Source: Clostridia bacterium (GTDB lineage Bacteria; Bacillota; Clostridia; TANB77; CAG-508). From it: a stretch of 64,000 bases of DNA. Positions 3,646-42,162 of this stretch are shown here, piece by piece. Location: contig JAFWMA010000010.1 of assembly GCA_017510825.1 (NCBI GenBank), forward strand, positions 21,647-85,646. The letters are read 5' to 3'. Positions within the stretch are counted from its first letter, which is position 1. The number at the start of each line of letters is the position of its first letter. Made by a program: the position numbers and the translations under genes. The notes beneath the pieces were generated by a model that saw nothing but the letters and a program-made list of their open reading frames with translations, ran no database searches and was not told where the DNA came from.

Positions 3646-5193
3646 ATGGTAGATTATATAACGATAATAGGTGGAGGTTTAGCTGGGTGTGAAGCGGCTT
3701 ATCAAATTGCAAAAAGAGGAATAAAGGTGAAATTGTATGAGATGAAACCAGCTAAGTTTTCACCAGCTCATAGTAATGAAAATTTAGCTGAAATTGTGTG
3801 TAGCAATTCATTTAAGTCAGACTTGCTAACAAATGCATGTGGACTATTAAAAGAAGAACTACGAATGATGGATTCACTCCTAATAAAAATAGCAGATCAA
3901 ACAAAAGTCCCTGCAGGACAAGCACTAGCAGTAGATAGAGAGGAATTTGCTAAAAAAGTTACAGAAGAGATAAAAAACAATCCATTAATTGAAGTGATAA
4001 ATCAAGAGATTACATCAAAAGAAAGATTTGGAGACGCTTCTCAAATCTTACAAAACGAATCTCTAAGATTTGGAGATACTTCCCCAATTTTACAAAATAA
4101 AACTGCAGACTTGCCAAAAACCCCCGTCCCTAATGGCACTAATGGCAGGAATCTGCCAAAAACCTCCGTCCCTAATGGCAGATGCTTGGAAGAATTAATA
4201 GGAGAAGGAATCGTAATAATTGCAACAGGTCCATTAACATCAGATGCCTTATCAGAAGGAATTAGGAATCTAACAGGAGAGGAAGATTTACACTTCTACG
4301 ATGCTCAAGCTCCAATAGTTGAAAAAGATTCAATTGACTTTAATATAGCTTTTTATGGAAACAGATATGAACAAGAAAAGAAAAAAGATGAAACTATTGA
4401 ACAATGGAAAGAGAGATTAACTAATCAATCAGAAGAAACACAAAGTTATATAAACCTACTTATGAATGAAGAAGAATATAATAAATTTTATAATGAATTA
4501 ATTAATGCAGAAGTTGTAACACTAAGAGATTTTGAAAAACGAGAAATCTTTGAGGGATGTATGCCAGTTGAAATAATGGCTAAGAGAGGGATAGATACTT
4601 TAAGATTTGGGCCACTTAAGCCAGTTGGTTTTGATGATCCACGAACAGGAAGAAGGCCTTATGCAGTGGTTCAATTAAGACAAGACAATTCTCAAGGTTC
4701 ACTATATAATATTGTAGGATTCCAAACAAATTTGAAATTTGGAGAACAAAAGAGGGTATTTAGTATGATACCAGGATTAGAGAGTGCTAATTTTGTGAAA
4801 TATGGTGTGATGCACAGAAATACATTTATTAATTCAACTAGATTATTAGATAATACATATAATTTTAAGGAAAATAAAAACATTTACTTTGCTGGACAAA
4901 TTACAGGAGTAGAAGGGTATGTAGAATCAATTGCATCAGGATTAGTATCTGGTATAAATGCTGTAAGAAGCTATAAAGAAGAAGAAAAAATAATATTTGA
5001 TGAACAAACTATGTTAGGAGCATTAGCAAAATATATATCAACACCTAACGACAAGTTCCAACCAATGAATGCAAACTATGGAATTTTACCACCTTTGAAA
5101 GAAAAAATAAGAGATAAAAAGTTAAGGTACAAAACATTAAGCGAAAGAAGTTTAAAAATAATTCACGGTATGCTTTATGTAGTAGATAAGTGA
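3646..5193 (+). CDS. trmFO: Methylenetetrahydrofolate--tRNA-(uracil54-C5)-methyltransferase TrmFO, with in-frame insertions
   Basis: FAD fold IIGGGLAGCEAAYQ, VCSNS, FEGCMPVE, VGFQTNLKFGEQKRVF, GQITGVEGYVES; 515 aa versus ~435 aa for typical TrmFO. Confidence 0.93.
   Translation: MVDYITIIGGGLAGCEAAYQIAKRGIKVKLYEMKPAKFSPAHSNENLAEIVCSNSFKSDLLTNACGLLKEELRMMDSLLIKIADQTKVPAGQALAVDREEFAKKVTEEIKNNPLIEVINQEITSKERFGDASQILQNESLRFGDTSPILQNKTADLPKTPVPNGTNGRNLPKTSVPNGRCLEELIGEGIVIIATGPLTSDALSEGIRNLTGEEDLHFYDAQAPIVEKDSIDFNIAFYGNRYEQEKKKDETIEQWKERLTNQSEETQSYINLLMNEEEYNKFYNELINAEVVTLRDFEKREIFEGCMPVEIMAKRGIDTLRFGPLKPVGFDDPRTGRRPYAVVQLRQDNSQGSLYNIVGFQTNLKFGEQKRVFSMIPGLESANFVKYGVMHRNTFINSTRLLDNTYNFKENKNIYFAGQITGVEGYVESIASGLVSGINAVRSYKEEEKIIFDEQTMLGALAKYISTPNDKFQPMNANYGILPPLKEKIRDKKLRYKTLSERSLKIIHGMLYVVDK
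4024..4190. repeat. Repeat-derived in-frame block inside trmFO (2 x 42 nt + 2 x 42 nt)
   Basis: AGATTTGGAGACGCTTCTCAAATCTTACAAAA.../AGATTTGGAGATACTTCCCCAATTTTACAAAA... then two GCCAAAAACCYCCGTCCCTAATGGCA units; CCGTCCCTAATG is the reverse complement of CATTAGGGACGG in the glmS leader repeat. Confidence 0.75.
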
Positions 5194-20029: not shown

Positions 20030-20220
20030 GGACTGTCCAAAATTGCAAAGGTTTTGGAGAAAGATTGTCCAAAGTTGCAAATATTTTGCAAAAAAGGTTG
20101 TTCCAAGTTGCAAACGTTTTGCGAAAAAGGGTCATCCCAAACTGCAAACGTTTTGCGAAAAAGGGTCGTCCCAAACTGCAAATGTTTTGCAAAAAAGGGT
20201 CGTCCCAAATTGCAAAAAAA
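20030..20220 (+). repeat. Head-to-tail array of 5.7 units of the 33/34-nt REP-like repeat
   Basis: Units start at 20030, 20063, 20096, 20129, 20163, 20197; consensus GGGTCGTCCCAAACTGCAAACGTTTTGCGAAAAA; units become closer to consensus 5' to 3'. Confidence 0.9.
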
Positions 20221-24365: not shown

Positions 24366-24447
24366 TGGATTATAATTATATTATAGATAGAGGTAATTAA
24401 TTAATGCTAAGAAATATTAAATAATTTATTTAATAAAATAGTATAAT

Positions 24448-24480
24448 AAAAAACAGGTCTTGGGTAAAGACCTGTTTTTA
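24448..24480. terminator. Bidirectional terminator (metG / glmS)
   Basis: AAAAAACAGGTCTT-GGGTA-AAGACCTGTTTTT. Confidence 0.85.
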
Positions 24481-24503: not shown

Positions 24504-26342
24504 TTATTCTACGGTTACTGATTTAGCTAAATTACGTGGCTTGTCAACATCAAGTTTTTTACATTTTGCAATGTGGTATGCTAGTAATTGTAAAGGAATT
24601 ACAGATAATACAGGTGAAATTAGAGAAGAGCAATCAGGTATTTTAACAATTGATTCTTCATTAATATTGCTTGAATTTATGTCAATATCTTGATTTGATA
24701 TAAGAATTATATTAGCTCCTCTTGTTACAACTTCATCTAGATTACTCAATGTTTTACTGCTTATTGAAGGATTTGTTATTATTCCAATTACTGAAACACC
24801 ATCTTCAATTAGTGCAATAGGTCCATGTTTAAGTTCACCAGCAGCATAGGCTTCTGAATGAATATAAGTTATTTCTTTAACTTTTAAAGAACCTTCCATA
24901 GCAACTGCATAATCATTTATTCTACCAATAAAGAACATATTTTTATCTTGATAAATTTGATTAGCTATGTTTTTTACTTTATCACAATTATCTAGTATAT
25001 ATTTTATTTTGTCAGGTAATTGATTAAGATCATTTTTTAATTTTTCAAAATCAGCTGTATTTGATAGTCCAAGCTTTTCAGATATGAATAAAGCTAGTAT
25101 TGTAAGTAATGTTACTTGACAAGTGTAAGCTTTAGTTGATGCAACTGCTATTTCAGGTCCTGCATGTGTATATAAAACAAAATCTGATATTCTTGTAATG
25201 GAACTTCCTATTACATTTACAATTGAAAGTGTAGTTGAGCCAGATTTTTTTGCTAGTTTTAGAGCAGCTATTGTATCAGCTGTTTCTCCTGATTGGCTAA
25301 TAAATATACATAGAGTTTTTTCATTAATTAAGGGATTTCTATATCTAAATTCTGAAGCCATATCAACTTCACAAGGAATTTGAGTAAATTTTTCAAAAAT
25401 ATATTTTGTTGCAATCCCAGCGTGCATTGCAGTTCCGCATGCGACTATATATATTTTATTATATTTATTTACATCTAAGCTGTTTAATGGTAAATTAATG
25501 TTTCCTTCTTTATTAAATGAAGTTCCAATTGTTTCACGAATAGCAGTTGGCTGTTCATAAATTTCTTTAAGCATATAATCATCATATCCATTTTTTTCAC
25601 TTGCTATAGCATCCCATTCAATGTTTTTTATTTCTTTTTCAATTATGTTTAAATCATAATTATAAAAAGTAATGGAGTCTTTTTTTACTTCTGCAATTTC
25701 ATAATCTTCCATAAAATAAAAATCTTTTGTATATGAAAGTATTGCAGGAATGTCAGATGCTATGTAGTTTTCGTTTTTACCAACGCCTATTACTACTGGG
25801 CTATCTTTTTTTACTACTATTATTTCATCTTTAAGTAAAGGTGAAGTGATTTCGAGTGCATAGCTACCTTCAAGTTTTTTTAAGGCTTCAGTAACAGCAA
25901 ATAATACTCCTTTTTTGGTGTTTTTATTGTAAAAGTAGTGGATTAAGTTAGGTATTAGTTCAGTATCAGTTTCAGAATGAAGTGCATATCCCTTTTTTTC
26001 AATGAATGATTTTAGCTCATCATAGTTTTCTATTATACCATTATGAACAACAGTAAATGTATTGTTGTTATCAGTATGAGGATGAGAGTTAATTTTAGAG
26101 GGCATACCTCTTGTTGCCCATCTTGTATGAGCAATGCCAATTGAACCTGTTAGAGATTCGAGTTCTGAGTTATCTTGTAATTTCTTTACTCTTCCCATAT
26201 CCTTAACTATTTTTAGAGAATTGTCATTGTTTAAAACAGCAAGCCCTGCTGAATCATATCCTCTGTACTCAAGTGAAAGCAATCCATTAATAAGCACTGG
26301 TACAGCTTTCTTTGTACCAATGTATCCAACGATTCCACACAT
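24504..26342 (-). CDS. glmS: Glutamine--fructose-6-phosphate aminotransferase
   Basis: True start MCGIVGYIG (ATG 26342) behind GGAGG; C-terminal ...AKSVTVE; 612 aa. Confidence 0.97.
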   Translation of the reverse strand: MCGIVGYIGTKKAVPVLINGLLSLEYRGYDSAGLAVLNNDNSLKIVKDMGRVKKLQDNSELESLTGSIGIAHTRWATRGMPSKINSHPHTDNNNTFTVVHNGIIENYDELKSFIEKKGYALHSETDTELIPNLIHYFYNKNTKKGVLFAVTEALKKLEGSYALEITSPLLKDEIIVVKKDSPVVIGVGKNENYIASDIPAILSYTKDFYFMEDYEIAEVKKDSITFYNYDLNIIEKEIKNIEWDAIASEKNGYDDYMLKEIYEQPTAIRETIGTSFNKEGNINLPLNSLDVNKYNKIYIVACGTAMHAGIATKYIFEKFTQIPCEVDMASEFRYRNPLINEKTLCIFISQSGETADTIAALKLAKKSGSTTLSIVNVIGSSITRISDFVLYTHAGPEIAVASTKAYTCQVTLLTILALFISEKLGLSNTADFEKLKNDLNQLPDKIKYILDNCDKVKNIANQIYQDKNMFFIGRINDYAVAMEGSLKVKEITYIHSEAYAAGELKHGPIALIEDGVSVIGIITNPSISSKTLSNLDEVVTRGANIILISNQDIDINSSNINEESIVKIPDCSSLISPVLSVIPLQLLAYHIAKCKKLDVDKPRNLAKSVTVE

Positions 26343-26389
26343 GTGAAAACCTCCTTTATATAGGTTCACAGCTAGGTGATGTTGAATTT

Positions 26390-26739
26390 GTTACAAACTA
26401 TTTTCAATTTGAGAAATAATTTTTTTATTGTAGTTTGCTTTTTGCCAACATCTCTTGACAGTAGCATGCCATAGAATCATCCGCCGAATATTTCGATAAA
26501 TTCTATCCTCGTCAGCTGAGAAAATTAGGTCACTGGGGACGGAGCACTTGGCCCACTTTTGGGTCATTAGGGACGGAGCATTTTAGTTAAAATTAGAACA
26601 ATAAAGCAATAAGTAGATTTGTTTTATTATATTTATTGACTTGTTGGGACAGATTTAATTAAAAAGCTCTGTCCCTAATGACCCAAAAGTGGGCCAAATG
26701 CTCCGTCCCCAGTGACCTAATTTTCTCAGCTCTGGCGCT
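26390..26739 (-). ncRNA. glmS ribozyme (cis-regulatory) with greatly enlarged P1
   Basis: Minus strand A|GCGCCAGAGCU...AGCUGACGAGGAUAGAAUUUAUCGAAAUAUUCGGCGGAUGAUUC plus a downstream P4-like hairpin GCAAACUAC...AUAGUUUGU; located in the glmS 5' UTR. Confidence 0.85.
26514..26731. repeat. Inverted doublet of GGGACGGAGC-type repeat units (66-bp arms, 86-nt loop)
   Basis: 26514-26579 vs reverse complement of 26666-26731 differ at 2 of 66 positions. Confidence 0.92.
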
Positions 26740-26765
26740 TGATATTATTTTGTGACCTAACATAT

Positions 26766-26794
26766 TTTATACACTATAATTAAAAAAAGTGCAA
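26766..26794 (-). promoter_or_regulatory. glmS promoter
   Basis: Minus strand TTGCAC-17 bp-TATAAA, placing the start ~20 nt upstream of the ribozyme cleavage site. Confidence 0.6.
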
Positions 26795-29856: not shown

Positions 29857-29912
29857 TTTTGCAATTTGGGACGACCTTTTTCAGCAAAAAAATTGCAATT
29901 TAGGACACTCCT
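29857..29912 (-). repeat. Two REP-like units (reverse orientation) immediately after the stp stop
   Basis: TTTTGCAATTTGGGACGACCTTTTT and TTGCAATTTAGGACACTCC; a further palindrome TGCAAAAAAACTGCATTTTTTTGCA lies at ~29955-29985. Confidence 0.85.
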
Positions 29913-34074: not shown

Positions 34075-34139
34075 ATGTCAATATATAGCAATAACTAAAA
34101 AAGCTAATTGCTACATATTGACATTTTATTTTGTGTTTT
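34075..34139 (+). terminator. 18-bp AT-rich hairpin + T-tract (terminator-like)
   Basis: ATGTCAATATATAGCAAT / ATTGCTACATATTGACAT (1 mismatch) followed by TTTATTTTGTGTTTT. Confidence 0.5.
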
Positions 34140-34189
34140 GAGGGACACTTTCCGAAAACAGGTCATTGCTGTTTGTGAAAGGTGTCTCC
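34140..34189. repeat. GGGACAC-type palindromic element
   Basis: GAGGGACACTTTCCGAAAACAG pairs with CTGTTTGTGAAAGGTGTCTCC; resembles the AGGACACTCC variant at 29903. Confidence 0.5.
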
Positions 34190-34235
34190 AGAAACATCAC
34201 CTAAAATACTTTTTTCACAAATCTTTCTTAAAGTA

Positions 34236-37107: not shown

Positions 37108-37151
37108 AGGGAGCGCAATTTTTGCAATTTGGGACGACCATTTTTTGCAAG
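37088..37151 (-). repeat. REP-like units overlapping the ileS 3' end and flanking the RAYT gene (left flank)
   Basis: GCAAAAGTTTGCAGTTAGAGGGAGCGC then CAATTTTTGCAATTTGGGACGACCATTTTTTGCAAG. Confidence 0.85.
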
Positions 37152-37262
37152 AATTTTGAAAAAACTTAAAATATGATTATGATATATGTTTATAAATAAT
37201 ATTAATTAATGATTAGTAAATAAGTGGGGGTATTATTCTAATCAAAGATTGGAGGTAATAGT

Positions 37263-38006
37263 ATGCCTAGAATTTCTAGAGAATCATTAATAGGGAAAAA
37301 TGTTTTTCATGTTATGACACAGGGAATAAAAAAAGAGAACATTTTTAAATATGAAAGAAAAAAATATGAATATATTAAACTAATGAAAAAACTAAAAGAT
37401 GATTATAATATAAAATTGATTTCATATTGTATGATGGATAATCATGCGCATATATTAATTAATACAAGTAAAATAAAAAGTATGACTGAGTTTATGCACA
37501 AATTAAATACACTATATGGAATTTATTATAATAAAAGTTTAGATAGAATAGGTTATGTTTTTAGGAATAGATTTGAAACTCAGCCAATCATAAATATTAG
37601 TTATTTGCATAACTGTATACTATATATACACAATAATCCTGTCAAAGCAGGAATTTGTGAAAATGCTAAGCAATATAAGTTTTCTAGCTATTATTATTTC
37701 TATAAAGAAAACAATAATATCTTTAAAAGATTGTTTAAAAATCTTAATGAATATAATATGGCGCATAAGAGGGCTATTAGAAAAGTCTATTTAATAGAAG
37801 ATGAAGACGATGTAAAAAGAGAAATTGTGAGCGAAATTACGGAGTACCTTAGATTAAATAAAAGAAATAAAATAGAGTTAAAAGCGGATAAGGAATTATT
37901 GAAACCAATTGCTAAAAGATTAAAAAATATCTATGGTCTCTCAAATGAAAAAAATGGTAAATATTTAGATGTTAGTAGAGAAAAAATAAGATATATTTTA
38001 AAATAG
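37263..38006 (+). CDS. REP-associated tyrosine transposase (RAYT; HUH/Y1, IS200-like fold) with C-terminal HTH-like tail
   Basis: HUH motif MMDNHAHILI, catalytic-Tyr motif LYIHNNPVKAG, YVFRNRF; flanked by inverted REPs; no tnpB partner. Confidence 0.85.
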   Translation: MPRISRESLIGKNVFHVMTQGIKKENIFKYERKKYEYIKLMKKLKDDYNIKLISYCMMDNHAHILINTSKIKSMTEFMHKLNTLYGIYYNKSLDRIGYVFRNRFETQPIINISYLHNCILYIHNNPVKAGICENAKQYKFSSYYYFYKENNNIFKRLFKNLNEYNMAHKRAIRKVYLIEDEDDVKREIVSEITEYLRLNKRNKIELKADKELLKPIAKRLKNIYGLSNEKNGKYLDVSREKIRYILK

Positions 38007-38007
38007 A

Positions 38008-38128
38008 GGGGGACCTTTTAGAAAAAGTTTGATAAAAAAGATGGGCTATTTTAACGAAAGTTTGCTAAAATAGGTCGTCCCAAATTGCAATTTTTTGCTA
38101 AAAAGGGCTGTTCTAAATGACAAAGAGG
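38008..38128 (+). repeat. Array of four ~32-33-nt REP-like units (right flank of RAYT)
   Basis: Units at 38008, 38040, 38073, 38105; the third is near-consensus, the others degenerate. Confidence 0.8.
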
Positions 38129-40467: not shown

Positions 40468-42162
40468 ATGGCTTTAATCCAAGAAGAATCAAATAATAAC
40501 GAAAATAAAGTCAAGAGTTTAAAACATAGTTTAATTGTTATTATTATTTTTGCTTTTTTACTAATTATCGTAGCAATTGTAATTTATGTTTATTCTATTA
40601 ATGTAGCTACTGTACAACGTAAGGTATTAATTGATGGGACAAGTAATACAAAACTTGCAAATGATGAGGATGTTTTTATTGTTGAAAATGATAAAGTATA
40701 TACTTCTATAAAACTGATAGCAGATGCTATAGGTTATAAGTTTTATCCAGGTGAATATCAACAATATACAGAGGATGAATCAAGTTGCTATGTTACTAAT
40801 CAAAAAGAATTAGTAACTTTTACTGCAGGGTCAAAAGAAATAAGAAAATATCCTCAGCTTTCTAAGTCTGAGTCACAATTATTTGATTTAGATGAAGAAG
40901 TTCAGGATAGAAAGAATAGCCTTTACTTAAGTGAAAAAGGAATGGAAAGAGCATTTAATACAATAGTTAAGTATACAAAGGATAATAATACAATTTCATT
41001 AACTACCTTAGGATATTTAACAACTAATGTTACTACTCAAGTTAAAAATGCGTATTTAATAAAAAAAGAAGGTGAAACTGAAAATAATGAAATGACAGAA
41101 TCTATTTTGTTTAATAATCAAAAAGCATTATTAGCTAATTTAGTTGTTACACAAAATGATAGTACAAAGTTGTTTGGAGTTACAAAAACAACAAATGGTG
41201 AAATGAATAGTATTATTTCAGAAAGATATAAGGTGATTGAATTTATTGAGGGAGCGAATGATTTTATTGTAAAGACTGAAGATAATAAATATGGAATTAT
41301 TGGAAATGAGGGATTTCCAAAAATAAAACCTGCTTATGACGAAATACAAGAACTTGATAAGGATTTGGGATTGTATTTAGTAACAAGTAATGGAAAACAA
41401 GGTGTTGTAAATCAAAATGGAAATGATATTGTATATCAAGAATATGATCAAATTGGTTTAGATGCTGATAATGGAGACAAAAATGTTAAAAATAGATATT
41501 TATTGTATGGCAATTGTATTCCTGTTAAATTAGATAAAAAATGGGGGTTGATTGATAAAAATGGAAATAAGATATTAAATATAGAATATGATGGTATAGG
41601 ATGTAAACTTTCTTCAACTCAAGCAAATACTACTGGAATTGTTTTAATACCAGATATGGAAGCTATTGTTGTTGAACAGGATATGAAAAAGGCAGATGGC
41701 AATTCGGTAGTGAAAAAATATGGAATTGTAAATTCTAAAGGAGAAAAGATTACTGATATTGCTGCAGATTCAGCATATGCAATTACTATAGATAATAAGG
41801 TTACATATTATTTATCTGTGGATAATCAGATGATTGATATTGTTGAGTTTTGGAATAAGTATAAATATGGTAATAATAATCAAACAGAAAATCCACAACA
41901 GCAATCTCAGGAACAGCAACAATTAGAACAGCAACAATTGCAACAGCAACAATTAGAACAGCAACAATTGCAACAGCAACAATTAGAACAACAACAATTG
42001 CAACAGCAACAATTAGAACAACAACAATTGCAACAGCAACAATTGCAACAACAACAATTGCAACAACAACAATTGGAACAGCAACAATTGGAACAGCAAC
42101 AACAACAGCAACAGCAACAAACAGAACAACAGTTTTTACAGTATTCTCAATTTGTTAATTAG
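40468..42162 (+). CDS. Membrane-anchored WG-repeat protein with C-terminal poly(QQQLE/Q) tail
   Basis: N-terminal TM; KYGIIGNEG, KQGVVNQNGNDI, KWGLIDKNGNKI, KYGIVNSKGEKI repeats. Confidence 0.85.
   Translation: MALIQEESNNNENKVKSLKHSLIVIIIFAFLLIIVAIVIYVYSINVATVQRKVLIDGTSNTKLANDEDVFIVENDKVYTSIKLIADAIGYKFYPGEYQQYTEDESSCYVTNQKELVTFTAGSKEIRKYPQLSKSESQLFDLDEEVQDRKNSLYLSEKGMERAFNTIVKYTKDNNTISLTTLGYLTTNVTTQVKNAYLIKKEGETENNEMTESILFNNQKALLANLVVTQNDSTKLFGVTKTTNGEMNSIISERYKVIEFIEGANDFIVKTEDNKYGIIGNEGFPKIKPAYDEIQELDKDLGLYLVTSNGKQGVVNQNGNDIVYQEYDQIGLDADNGDKNVKNRYLLYGNCIPVKLDKKWGLIDKNGNKILNIEYDGIGCKLSSTQANTTGIVLIPDMEAIVVEQDMKKADGNSVVKKYGIVNSKGEKITDIAADSAYAITIDNKVTYYLSVDNQMIDIVEFWNKYKYGNNNQTENPQQQSQEQQQLEQQQLQQQQLEQQQLQQQQLEQQQLQQQQLEQQQLQQQQLQQQQLQQQQLEQQQLEQQQQQQQQQTEQQFLQYSQFVN
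41911..42120 (+). repeat. Coding tandem repeat, 15-nt period (30-nt super-period)
   Basis: (GAACAGCAACAATTA/CAACAGCAACAATTG)n, ~14 units, encoding QQQLE/QQQLQ. Confidence 0.9.

Follow-up and report, generated by a model that had tools for sequence, protein, structure and literature searches.

The leader of glmS in a 64,000-nt stretch of a Clostridia bacterium genome (contig JAFWMA010000010.1, positions 21,647 to 85,646; hereafter the window) encodes a glmS ribozyme whose P1 hairpin has grown to 218 nt through inverted copies of a repeat resembling repetitive extragenic palindromic (REP) sequences. We favor, with a probability of about 0.6, a functional ribozyme dependent on glucosamine-6-phosphate (GlcN6P) that carries the REP-derived P1 extension as a tolerated passenger. 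The element is a clear natural case of selfish repeats inside a ribozyme helix rather than the demonstration of a new mechanism; coaxial geometry of the extension, catalytic competence and absence of an added function are features that we infer. Loci encoding GlmS homologues (69-80% identity), whose leaders were read alongside the window, are designated by L numbers (L004, L029, L031-L038 and others).

A scan of the whole window against Rfam yielded one family above its gathering score. RF00234 (glmS ribozyme) matched 26750-26415 on the minus strand with 60.3 bits (gathering score 37, E 2e-11), covering model positions 1-167 and assigning a 197-nt insertion to the P1 loop in the cmscan alignment. 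The preliminary description was thus right to place a glmS ribozyme in the glmS 5' untranslated region (UTR), which the model recognizes even with the insert in place. Plant miRNA-precursor models also matched the insert in a low-threshold Rfam scan (24-66 bits versus gathering scores of 85-200); these were set aside as generic long-hairpin matches. Outside the insert, the ribozyme consists of the following parts (arrow, scissile bond).

26732..26740, minus strand: cleavage-site strand AA↓GCGCCAGA, aligned to the invariant AGCGCC of RF00234 with a posterior probability marked by an asterisk.
26450..26513, minus strand: catalytic core, P2/P2.1/P2.2/P3 region (GACGAGGAUAGAAUUUAUCGAAAUAUUCGGCGGAUGAUUCUAUGGCAUGCUACUGUCAAGAG), with every upper-case RF00234 consensus residue matched.
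26377..26449, minus strand: P4/P4.1 peripheral domain, from the minimum free energy (MFE) fold and comparison with the homologous L004 and L033, in which the cmscan alignment of P4.1 is correct.

On the minus strand, 26740-26731 reads AAGCGCCAGA and the sequence from 26513 onward reads GACGAGGAUAGAAUUUAUCGAAAUAUUCGGCGGAUG. The scissile bond lies between A26739 and G26738, and the cleavage-site strand is identical in L029, L031 and L037. The invariant core residues GACGAGGA, UUAUCGA, UCGGCGGAUG and ACAAA were all matched in the cmscan alignment together with A↓GCGCC, and the ACAAAUUCAACAUC segment was recovered once P4.1 had been aligned as in L004 and L033. Closure of P1 between cleavage-site strand and core is provided by pairing of AGCUGAGAAAA with UUUUCUCAGCU, which the insert extends; the length of this helix is atypical and not a defining feature. 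P4 comprises 8 bp (GAUGUUGG/(U)CAACAUC, the closing CAACAUC lying at 26384-26378 according to the MFE fold and homology), so that the ribozyme ends at about 26377 and not, as first described, at 26390. P4.1 also has 8 bp (GCAAACUA/UAGUUUGU), with a loop expanded to ~30 nt (26401-26430), and L031 has the same P4/P4.1 architecture. Because of the P4.1 loop expansion, cmscan misaligns the 3' domain of the window ribozyme, forcing a 20-nt deletion, and understates its score. On each sequence and structure criterion tested the element is a member of RF00234, and catalysis is predicted. Loop expansion in P4.1 is common to the group of the window, L029, L031 and L037 (30 nt in the window at 26401-26430, ~75 nt in L029 at 2866-2940 and 32 nt in L031 at 1018-1049), and L004, L033 and L036 have a tetraloop.

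The leader follows the order conserved promoter, ribozyme, ribosome-binding site, glmS.

26766..26794, minus strand: putative sigma-A-type promoter of the glmS leader, read from the sequence and conserved in five aligned species.
24504..26356, minus strand: ribosome-binding site AAGGAGG (26356-26350) and glmS coding sequence, with ATG at 26342, 612 aa and N-terminus MCGIVGY, from the open reading frame (ORF) list, Pfam GATase_6/7 and SIS domains, and homologues.

The promoter has a -35 element TTGCAC (26794-26789), a 17-nt spacer and a -10 element TATAAA (26771-26766). It sits 26 nt upstream of the cleavage site and would start transcription at about 26761-26758, ~20 nt upstream of that site; 34 nt separate the end of the ribozyme from the glmS ATG. 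A start downstream of 26514 would exclude AGCGCC from the glmS mRNA. The only good promoter found, however, lies upstream of AGCGCC, and the promoter scan revealed no promoter-like site on the glmS strand within the insert. The scanner itself missed TTGCAC-17-TATAAA, as it demands T at position 6 of the -10 element, and the sites that it reported on the plus strand are on the side of the divergent gene. At the extreme 5' end of the leader, UUAGGUCAC (26752-26760) is conserved in all relatives and is predicted to pair with the conserved ACCUAGC/GUGAACCUA (26364-26376) just 3' of P4, giving a helix that would enclose the whole ribozyme; both sides of this helix are invariant and hence beyond covariation testing. 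The same UUAGGUCAC equals the first 9 nt of the outer repeat unit of the window and was considered as a repeat remnant, an origin rejected given its conservation in relatives without such repeats.

The insert and the native stem that bears it are laid out on the minus strand as follows.

26721..26731, minus strand: native P1 base, 5' strand (AGCUGAGAAAA), aligned to model P1 and paired with 26514-26524.
26666..26720, minus strand: 5' arm of the P1 extension, two sense 34-nt REP-like units (UUAGGUCACUGGGGACGGAGCAUUUGGCCCAC / UUUUGGGUCAUUAGGGACAGAGC), from the period-34 direct repeat and the pairing table.
26580..26665, minus strand: palindrome center, AT-rich and partly self-complementary (~24/36 further positions pair), from the inverted repeat and folds.
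26525..26579, minus strand: 3' arm of the P1 extension, two antisense units, from repeat and pairing analysis.
26514..26524, minus strand: native P1 base, 3' strand (UUUUCUCAGCU), from model alignment and pairing.

The pairing table confirmed that 26666-26731 and 26514-26579 form 64 Watson-Crick pairs, one G-U (26698/26547) and one A-C (26670/26575) over 66 positions, as the preliminary description had it. Along the arms, 33 Watson-Crick pairs are followed by the G-U, 27 further Watson-Crick pairs, the A-C and a final four, so that the helix is continuous for 61 bp and reaches 66 bp when the single A-C mismatch is counted. Alignment to RF00234 and the pairing likewise bear out that a repeat-derived palindrome separates the cleavage-site strand from the core and extends the apical side of P1. 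The region between the arms had been taken for an 86-nt AT-rich loop, a view that we revise: it is a decayed inner palindrome. As a whole the insert is a decayed 218-nt palindrome, an inverted repeat with 102-nt arms that are 86% complementary and 14 nt apart, complementarity being ~67% in the inner palindrome versus 97% in the outer 66 nt. The true apical loop measures ~14 nt, and the center also holds a local hairpin (GGGACAGA/UCUGUCCC). The MFE of 26400-26760 on the minus strand is -164 kcal/mol versus -75 +/- 5.5 kcal/mol in dinucleotide shuffles (z = -16.3, with 0/100 shuffles as good), and the 218-nt hairpin alone accounts for -141 kcal/mol. Each arm contains a 34-nt direct doublet, that is, two head-to-tail units of the form GGGTCAYTRGGGACGGAGCATTTGGCCCACTTTT. 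The ends of the insert, TTAGG...CCTAA, are flanked by GAGAAAA/TTTTCTC; these flanks are complementary rather than direct and constitute the native P1 stem, so a target-site duplication would be unrecognizable.

The units in P1 belong to a family that is dispersed across the window. About 14 units with a GGGACG/GGGACA core occur in the 64 kb at seven loci (4124-4177, 20035-20216, 26525-26720, 29868, 34142, 37131 and 38077). They share a common layout, in which a left stem of short length is followed by WTTRGGGACR, then by a run of T and the right stem; the stems vary by subtype (GGTCA/TGGCC, TTGCA/TGCAA, CTGCCA/TGGCAG, GTGCA/TGCAC) and the GGGACG core is constant. Single units lie at 29868 (after a PP2C gene), 37131 and 38077, and two GGGACAC units in inverted orientation enclose a hairpin resembling a terminator at ~34133-34193. 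Inverted doublets of the REPIN type (REP doublets forming hairpins) are thus seen in the P1 insert and also around terminator-type hairpins in the window (~34133-34193), L029 and L031. The remaining elements that bear on the family are a tandem array and a transposase gene with its flanking units.

20035..20216, minus strand: intergenic tandem array between convergent genes, period 34 nt, 5.4 copies of unit TTTGCARTTTGGGACGACCCTTTTTYGCAAAAC (Tandem Repeats Finder score 217).
37263..38006, plus strand: IS200-like Y1 transposase of the RAYT (REP-associated tyrosine transposase) type, 247 aa (Pfam PF01797, Y1_Tnp, E 1.8e-9).
37117..37152, plus strand: left flanking GGGACG-core hairpin unit of the RAYT gene (TTGCAATTTGGGACGACC...), from the repeat listing.
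38060..38097, minus strand: right flanking GGGACG-core hairpin unit of the RAYT gene, inverted with respect to the left one, from the repeat listing.

The transposase carries an HUH motif (HAH, in NHAHIL) and YIHNNPVKAG. Its best NCBIfam match, NF047646 (REP-associated tyrosine transposase), scores 57.3 bits (E 1.5e-15) and falls short of the curated cut-off, which is 80; the IS200 model scores it at 17.8 bits only. The two flanking units have an identical 18-nt core in inverted orientation, and a gene with inverted flanking units is the defining arrangement of REP/RAYT systems (PMC3116915, PMC3337134). With dispersed units and a RAYT-type gene flanked by inverted units, the family is REP/REPIN-like, and the description that suits the insert best is that of a double doublet in inverted, REPIN-like arrangement, derived from a family of REP type. 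Indirect signs of mobility are differences in the number and sequence of units among strains whose GlmS is 99% identical, and opposite orientations of P1 hairpin loops among relatives. Metagenome scans (JGI) for the unit TGGGGACGGAGCAYTTGGCCCA and the clade core GACGAGGATAGAATYTATCGAAAT returned no matches.

Leaders of related glmS genes display P1 in several states.

L031/L032/L034 (GlmS 80%): insert at exactly the same P1 position, with two sense units, a homologous AT-rich center and 3-4 antisense units; cmscan loses the 5' strand.
L029 (GlmS 79%): a single sense unit, which makes a 19-bp hairpin on P1; RF00234 72.8 bits.
L037 (GlmS 79%): one decayed antisense unit; RF00234 66.5 bits.
L004 and L035 (GlmS 77%): P1 occupied by another subtype (TGCAATTAGGGACG...CTGCACA), oriented oppositely in the two; L004 95.6 bits, L035 56.8 bits (5'-truncated).
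L033 (GlmS 78%): short canonical P1; RF00234 101 bits.
L038 (GlmS 70%): short canonical P1; RF00234 74.7 bits.

P1 in this clade is, by these alignments, a recurrent home for GGGACG-type repeats. The one-unit leaders L029 and L037 and the short-P1 leader L033 act as natural proxies for a ribozyme freed of the insert, and all three score above the 60.3 bits of the window. The L031 leader folds into a long P1 of its own, with 59 Watson-Crick pairs and 3 G-U over 66 positions and an MFE z of -15.7. In two pairs of loci the loop of the P1 unit is reverse-complemented with the stem kept (L004 2817-2850 versus L035 1-30; L029 2737-2770 versus L037 160-195), and loop inversions together with unit-number changes suggest template switching at hairpins. 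Upstream of glmS in L039 (the L039-L042 lineage has 69% GlmS identity), the 216-nt intergenic region gave no RF00234 match at the gathering threshold; this lineage may lack the ribozyme or have one that has diverged too far. A scan of genome contigs returned L004 as the one close relative, the rest being Bacteroidota or archaeal GlmS of no bearing here. Similar units occur elsewhere at these loci. In L029 (4850-5015) and L031 (2947-3048), inverted GGGACACCTTCC units lie on either side of the hairpin that terminates glmS (AAAAACAGGC...GCCTGTTTTT) and lengthen its stem; the terminator of the window is plain (24440-24480). L029 7300-7580 resembles a MITE (miniature transposable element with inverted repeats), with GTGCAATTTGGGACAAACC-type units as terminal inverted repeats around a ~170-bp GC-rich core that had no Rfam match at gathering thresholds.

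Comparison of the window with L031 indicates an old insert within a selected ribozyme. Fourfold-degenerate sites of glmS are 54.5% identical, near saturation for a 29%-GC genome. Across the leader, identities between the two are as follows.

Promoter to cleavage site: 97%.
Catalytic core: ~98% (62/63 aligned positions).
Insert 5' arm: 91%.
AT-rich center: 82% of aligned positions.
P4.1 loop: 70%.
Intergenic region downstream: unalignable.

Since the two inserts have a homologous center and an identical insertion point, these data argue for one insertion before the two lineages diverged. The near-invariant core in both insert-bearing lineages implies continued selection on the ribozyme while it carried the insert. 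Two double-sided compensatory changes keep the first pairs of the P1 extension, just distal to the native base, closed, the window having AAAAUUAGG/CCUAAUUUU versus AAACUUGGG/CCCAAGUUU in L031. A related unit just upstream of the -35 element serves as an internal control and has decayed (27/37 identity, GGGAC changed to GGAAT in the window). L029 and L037 are nearer relatives of L031, have a single unit at the same P1 site and retain intact ribozymes; the long helix would thus be dispensable. That two related lineages appear to have lost most of the insert and kept the ribozyme favors a tolerated passenger.

P1 varies among glmS ribozymes, and its loop was replaced in crystallization constructs. 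[quoted passage not shown] We propose that a REP/REPIN-like palindrome of 34-nt GGGACG-core units colonized P1 before the window and L031 lineages diverged. With two sense and two antisense units around a decayed center, the transcript would zip into a coaxial P1 extension that points away from the catalytic core and still delivers the AGCGCC strand to it. During transcription the 5' arm would first form two local hairpins (-32.6 kcal/mol), to be displaced as the 3' arm emerges, and P1 would be closed by the time the core is made. On binding GlcN6P, the RNA is expected to self-cleave between A26739 and G26738, as in Bacillus, giving 2',3'-cyclic phosphate and 5'-OH ends, of which the 5'-OH would be on the glmS-bearing fragment and expose it to 5'-to-3' degradation by RNase J; RNase J1 is known to degrade the 5'-OH cleavage product (PMC3997798). 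The insert would have no separate job and would persist since P1 tolerates the load. Its arms would stay complementary because an insert failing to close P1 would hinder ribozyme folding, and arm-to-arm template switching or gene conversion may also keep them alike.

Several observations weigh against the passenger reading. Firstly, a near-perfect duplex of more than 60 bp is an expected RNase III substrate, and a passenger presupposes that cutting does not occur or is harmless. Secondly, the arms (91% identical between species, 97% complementary within) are better conserved than a purely neutral passenger, and selection of the helix for function is equally possible on this point. Thirdly, the exact P1 subtype (GGGTCA...TGGCCC stems) was not found elsewhere in the 64 kb, so that mobility of this subtype is deduced from related ones. 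Fourthly, a neighbor-joining tree of GlmS puts the window outside all of the 77-80% relatives (L004, L029, L031, L033, L035-L037), whereas leader similarity, the P1 insert, the P4.1 expansion and synteny (Trx-orf-glmS-metG-spoVT) tie it to the L029/L031/L037 group only. A single ancient insertion is therefore a probable rather than a settled history, and either faster evolution of the window GlmS or leader exchange between lineages may account for the conflict; given this conflict, the tree was not used to date gain or loss of the insert. Lastly, it is from core conservation that we infer GlcN6P-dependent self-cleavage with a 218-nt P1.

A possible alternative, to which we give appreciably less than even odds, is that the long P1 helix is a selected extra layer of control, acting through RNase III cutting or as a barrier to RNase J. 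RNase III needs roughly 20 bp of double-stranded RNA (dsRNA), and the continuous run of 33 Watson-Crick pairs, G-U and 27 Watson-Crick pairs is far above that length. Cutting would uncouple the cleavage-site strand from the mRNA or leave a two-piece ribozyme that what remains of P1 holds together, much like rRNA with its intervening sequences, and the glmS fragment would then bear a 5'-monophosphate buried in duplex. Alternatively, a helix of -141 kcal/mol beginning 8 nt after the 5'-OH end would impede RNase J and retune the effect of self-cleavage on glmS expression. Consistent with such control, the arms are better conserved than neighboring neutral sequence and than the sister unit outside the ribozyme, and two species have kept the long form even though long palindromes are known to be unstable in DNA. 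In addition, the outer 40 bp of L031 contain four non-Watson-Crick positions, three of them G-U when read in the mRNA sense. Insertions at 23S rRNA helix tips are, moreover, excised by RNase III without loss of function (PMC4990558). The G-U bias, however, amounts to 4 versus 2 A-C over both species, too few to be significant or to interpret as a test for the strand under selection. L029 and L037 are down to one unit with the ribozyme kept, and P1 is short in L033 and L038. Furthermore, the two arms differ in their number of units, as do strains whose GlmS is 99% identical (L031 versus L032/L034), as expected of array drift and not of a tuned structure. Among the ORFs of the window there is no rnc or rnj gene.

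We consider it doubtful, though worth stating, that the REP-derived helix has been co-opted such that ribozyme output is altered by a dsRNA-specific activity targeting P1, which could be RNase III or else a protein that binds the repeat or is related to RAYT. If so, the leader would contain a two-piece, trans-acting ribozyme or yield a 5'-OH fragment shielded from RNase J, with GlcN6P sensing gated by a second input, and the unusually well-conserved, self-complementary arms of the different species would then bear the mark of that selection.

It is improbable that the insert brings about partial intrinsic termination or attenuation, stopping a fraction of transcripts before the core and constitutively lowering glmS expression. 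The long GC-containing hairpin does end in CCUAA with a U-rich UUUUCUC (26524-26518) directly after it, the single-unit P1 of L029 (UUUGGGCCA...UGGCCCAAA then UUUUUCAG) is even more terminator-like, and related GGGAC units bracket the glmS terminator in L029 and L031 and the window hairpin at ~34133-34193. However, the helix ends in weak pairs (UAA/UUA) where it meets the U-tract, and the tract is short, interrupted, and reads GUUUCUC in L031; it is the conserved 3' strand of native P1, which pairs with GAGAAAA. No site emerged from a terminator scan, which in any case accepts only loops of 3-8 nt and would pass over such a hairpin. The glmS gene is also the only copy seen and must be expressed.

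Still harder to sustain is a ribozyme disabled by the insert, with glmS constitutive or otherwise controlled and the core a relic. The cmscan score of 60.3 bits versus 95.6-101 in short-P1 relatives and the local hairpins of the 5' arm (-32.6 kcal/mol), which could trap the cleavage-site strand during transcription, are compatible with inactivation. The score deficit is nevertheless explained by the insertion penalty and the misaligned P4.1, every invariant residue is present, and a relic would have decayed rather than remain ~98% identical in the core between two insert-bearing species whose synonymous sites are near saturation.

We attach next to no weight to an assembly artifact, by chimeric join or de Bruijn hairpin collapse: the region is evidently hard for assemblers (contigs of L032, L034, L035 and L036 break inside or next to P1), but the 218-nt palindrome is present in three independent assemblies from different assemblers (contigs of 30-55 kb) and in an orthologous, non-identical version in L031. 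The three are loci retrieved from different ENA assemblies among 14 contigs encoding identical GlmS, and it is because they share the leader, alike bar one base outside the insert, that the palindrome is judged genuine. The four broken contigs are independent and short, and their ends fit breakage of the de Bruijn graph at inverted and tandem repeats. Metagenome surveys of glmS leaders will systematically under-sample repeat-expanded P1 variants.

With respect to known systems, the element agrees with the glmS ribozyme-riboswitch of Bacillus subtilis, B. anthracis and Thermoanaerobacter tengcongensis in its A↓GCGCC strand, double-pseudoknot core, P3, P4/P4.1 and location in the glmS 5' UTR, and in the mechanism expected of it, with GlcN6P serving as coenzyme and RNase J degrading the 5'-OH product (PMC3997798). 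It differs in a P1 hairpin of 218 nt, compared with ~25-35 nt in the Rfam consensus, L033 and L038, of which ~66 bp are a near-perfect duplex built from mobile-type repeats, and in a P4.1 loop of ~30 nt. A literature search, incomplete in coverage and leaving out the main glmS survey, found no precedent for a repeat element in glmS P1 or in other riboswitches.

The repeats resemble REPs and REPINs with their RAYT genes in Pseudomonas and the bacterial interspersed mosaic elements of E. coli (PMC3116915, PMC3337134) in having dispersed and clustered intergenic hairpin units, inverted doublets that form long hairpins, and a single IS200-like Y1 transposase gene between two inverted units. Unlike those systems, the host is of a 29%-GC ruminant-gut Clostridia lineage, the period is 34 nt with head-to-tail arrays as well as inverted pairs, the conserved GGGACG folds as the loop with stems varying between subtypes, copies lie inside a ribozyme helix and in frame in trmFO, and the RAYT match is below the NCBIfam cut-off. 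The tetranucleotide CGTC, invariant in most units (GACG of GGGACG on the other strand), is the tag of one of two REP superfamilies, including Rickettsia palindromic elements (RPEs) that insert into genes (PMC3733652). Our units share with these repeats, among them RPE-4 and RPE-6, the CGTC core, dimers and clusters, and tolerated in-frame copies within functional genes. The published tag sits at an unpaired end beside an 8-9-bp stem with a 4-5-nt loop, and our units are candidate members of that superfamily: read antisense, the unit (CGTC-CCCAG-TGACCCA-AAAG-TGGGCCA) can be parsed into a tag followed by a stem of 7 bp with a loop of 4 nt, although unit boundaries are ambiguous in tandem arrays. 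CGTC repeats were moreover reported absent from Firmicutes and never flanking a RAYT (PMC3733652), whereas CGTC-containing units here flank one, and window 37117-38097 may be a counter-example to that 2013 survey.

As a functional analogy, the intervening sequences (IVSs) of 23S rRNA in Salmonella, Coxiella and Leptospira (PMC4990558) appear closest to the P1 insert, being selfish stem-loops at the tip of a peripheral helix of an essential RNA, where insertion would be tolerated because the helix tip is solvent-exposed. IVSs are, however, excised by RNase III to leave fragmented but functional rRNA, whereas cutting here would change the fragment that bears the regulated 5' end. Correia/NEMIS, ERIC and BOX elements are likewise repeat hairpins in the 5' or 3' UTRs of mRNAs that may serve as RNase III targets or influence stability (reviewed in PMC3184786), but lie beside regulatory elements and not within a catalytic-RNA helix.

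A second gene of the window hosts the family within its coding sequence. The trmFO gene occupies 3646-5193 on the plus strand, and its residues 124-185 have no counterpart in Thermus thermophilus TrmFO (PDB 3g5q).

4015..4200, plus strand: in-frame trmFO insert of ~60 aa with two CTGCCATTAGGGACGGAGGTTTTTGGCAG-type units on the other strand, whose cores occupy 4124-4133 and 4166-4175, from the repeat listing.

The insert consists of tandem DNA repeats including two GGGACG-core hairpin units and resembles Rickettsia palindromic elements inside proteins. The preliminary description held that the P1 repeat family also occurs in trmFO. The trmFO units are indeed a related sister subtype, but the shared part is only the core (A)TTAGGGACGGAG, the T-run and the hairpin layout, and the stems differ. 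A second TrmFO insert of ~20 aa occupies residues 245-264. Elsewhere in the window, a 15/30-nt tandem repeat at 41910-42132 (GGAACAGCAACAATT, ~13 copies) lies inside a 564-aa ORF (40468-42162) with a weak WG_beta_rep match and probably encodes a Gln/Asn-rich repeat.

The leader described here amounts to a natural experiment in structural load on a catalytic riboswitch: short selfish palindromic repeats have lengthened the outer hairpin of P1 about tenfold, and a ~200-nt palindrome of -141 kcal/mol between substrate strand and active site has been inherited through speciation. The findings extend the REP/RAYT picture to low-GC gut Clostridia, where one repeat family occupies a ribozyme helix, trmFO and terminators, and to CGTC-containing units flanking a RAYT-type gene, an arrangement that the 2013 survey reported never to occur (PMC3733652). 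If the RNA cleaves normally, P1 would be an almost unrestricted insertion site, of use in engineering glmS switches and of relevance to annotation pipelines, since cmscan already loses the 5' strand in L031. If instead cleavage is abnormal or the RNA is processed by RNase III, this would be the first case of a mobile repeat rewiring the output of a ribozyme.

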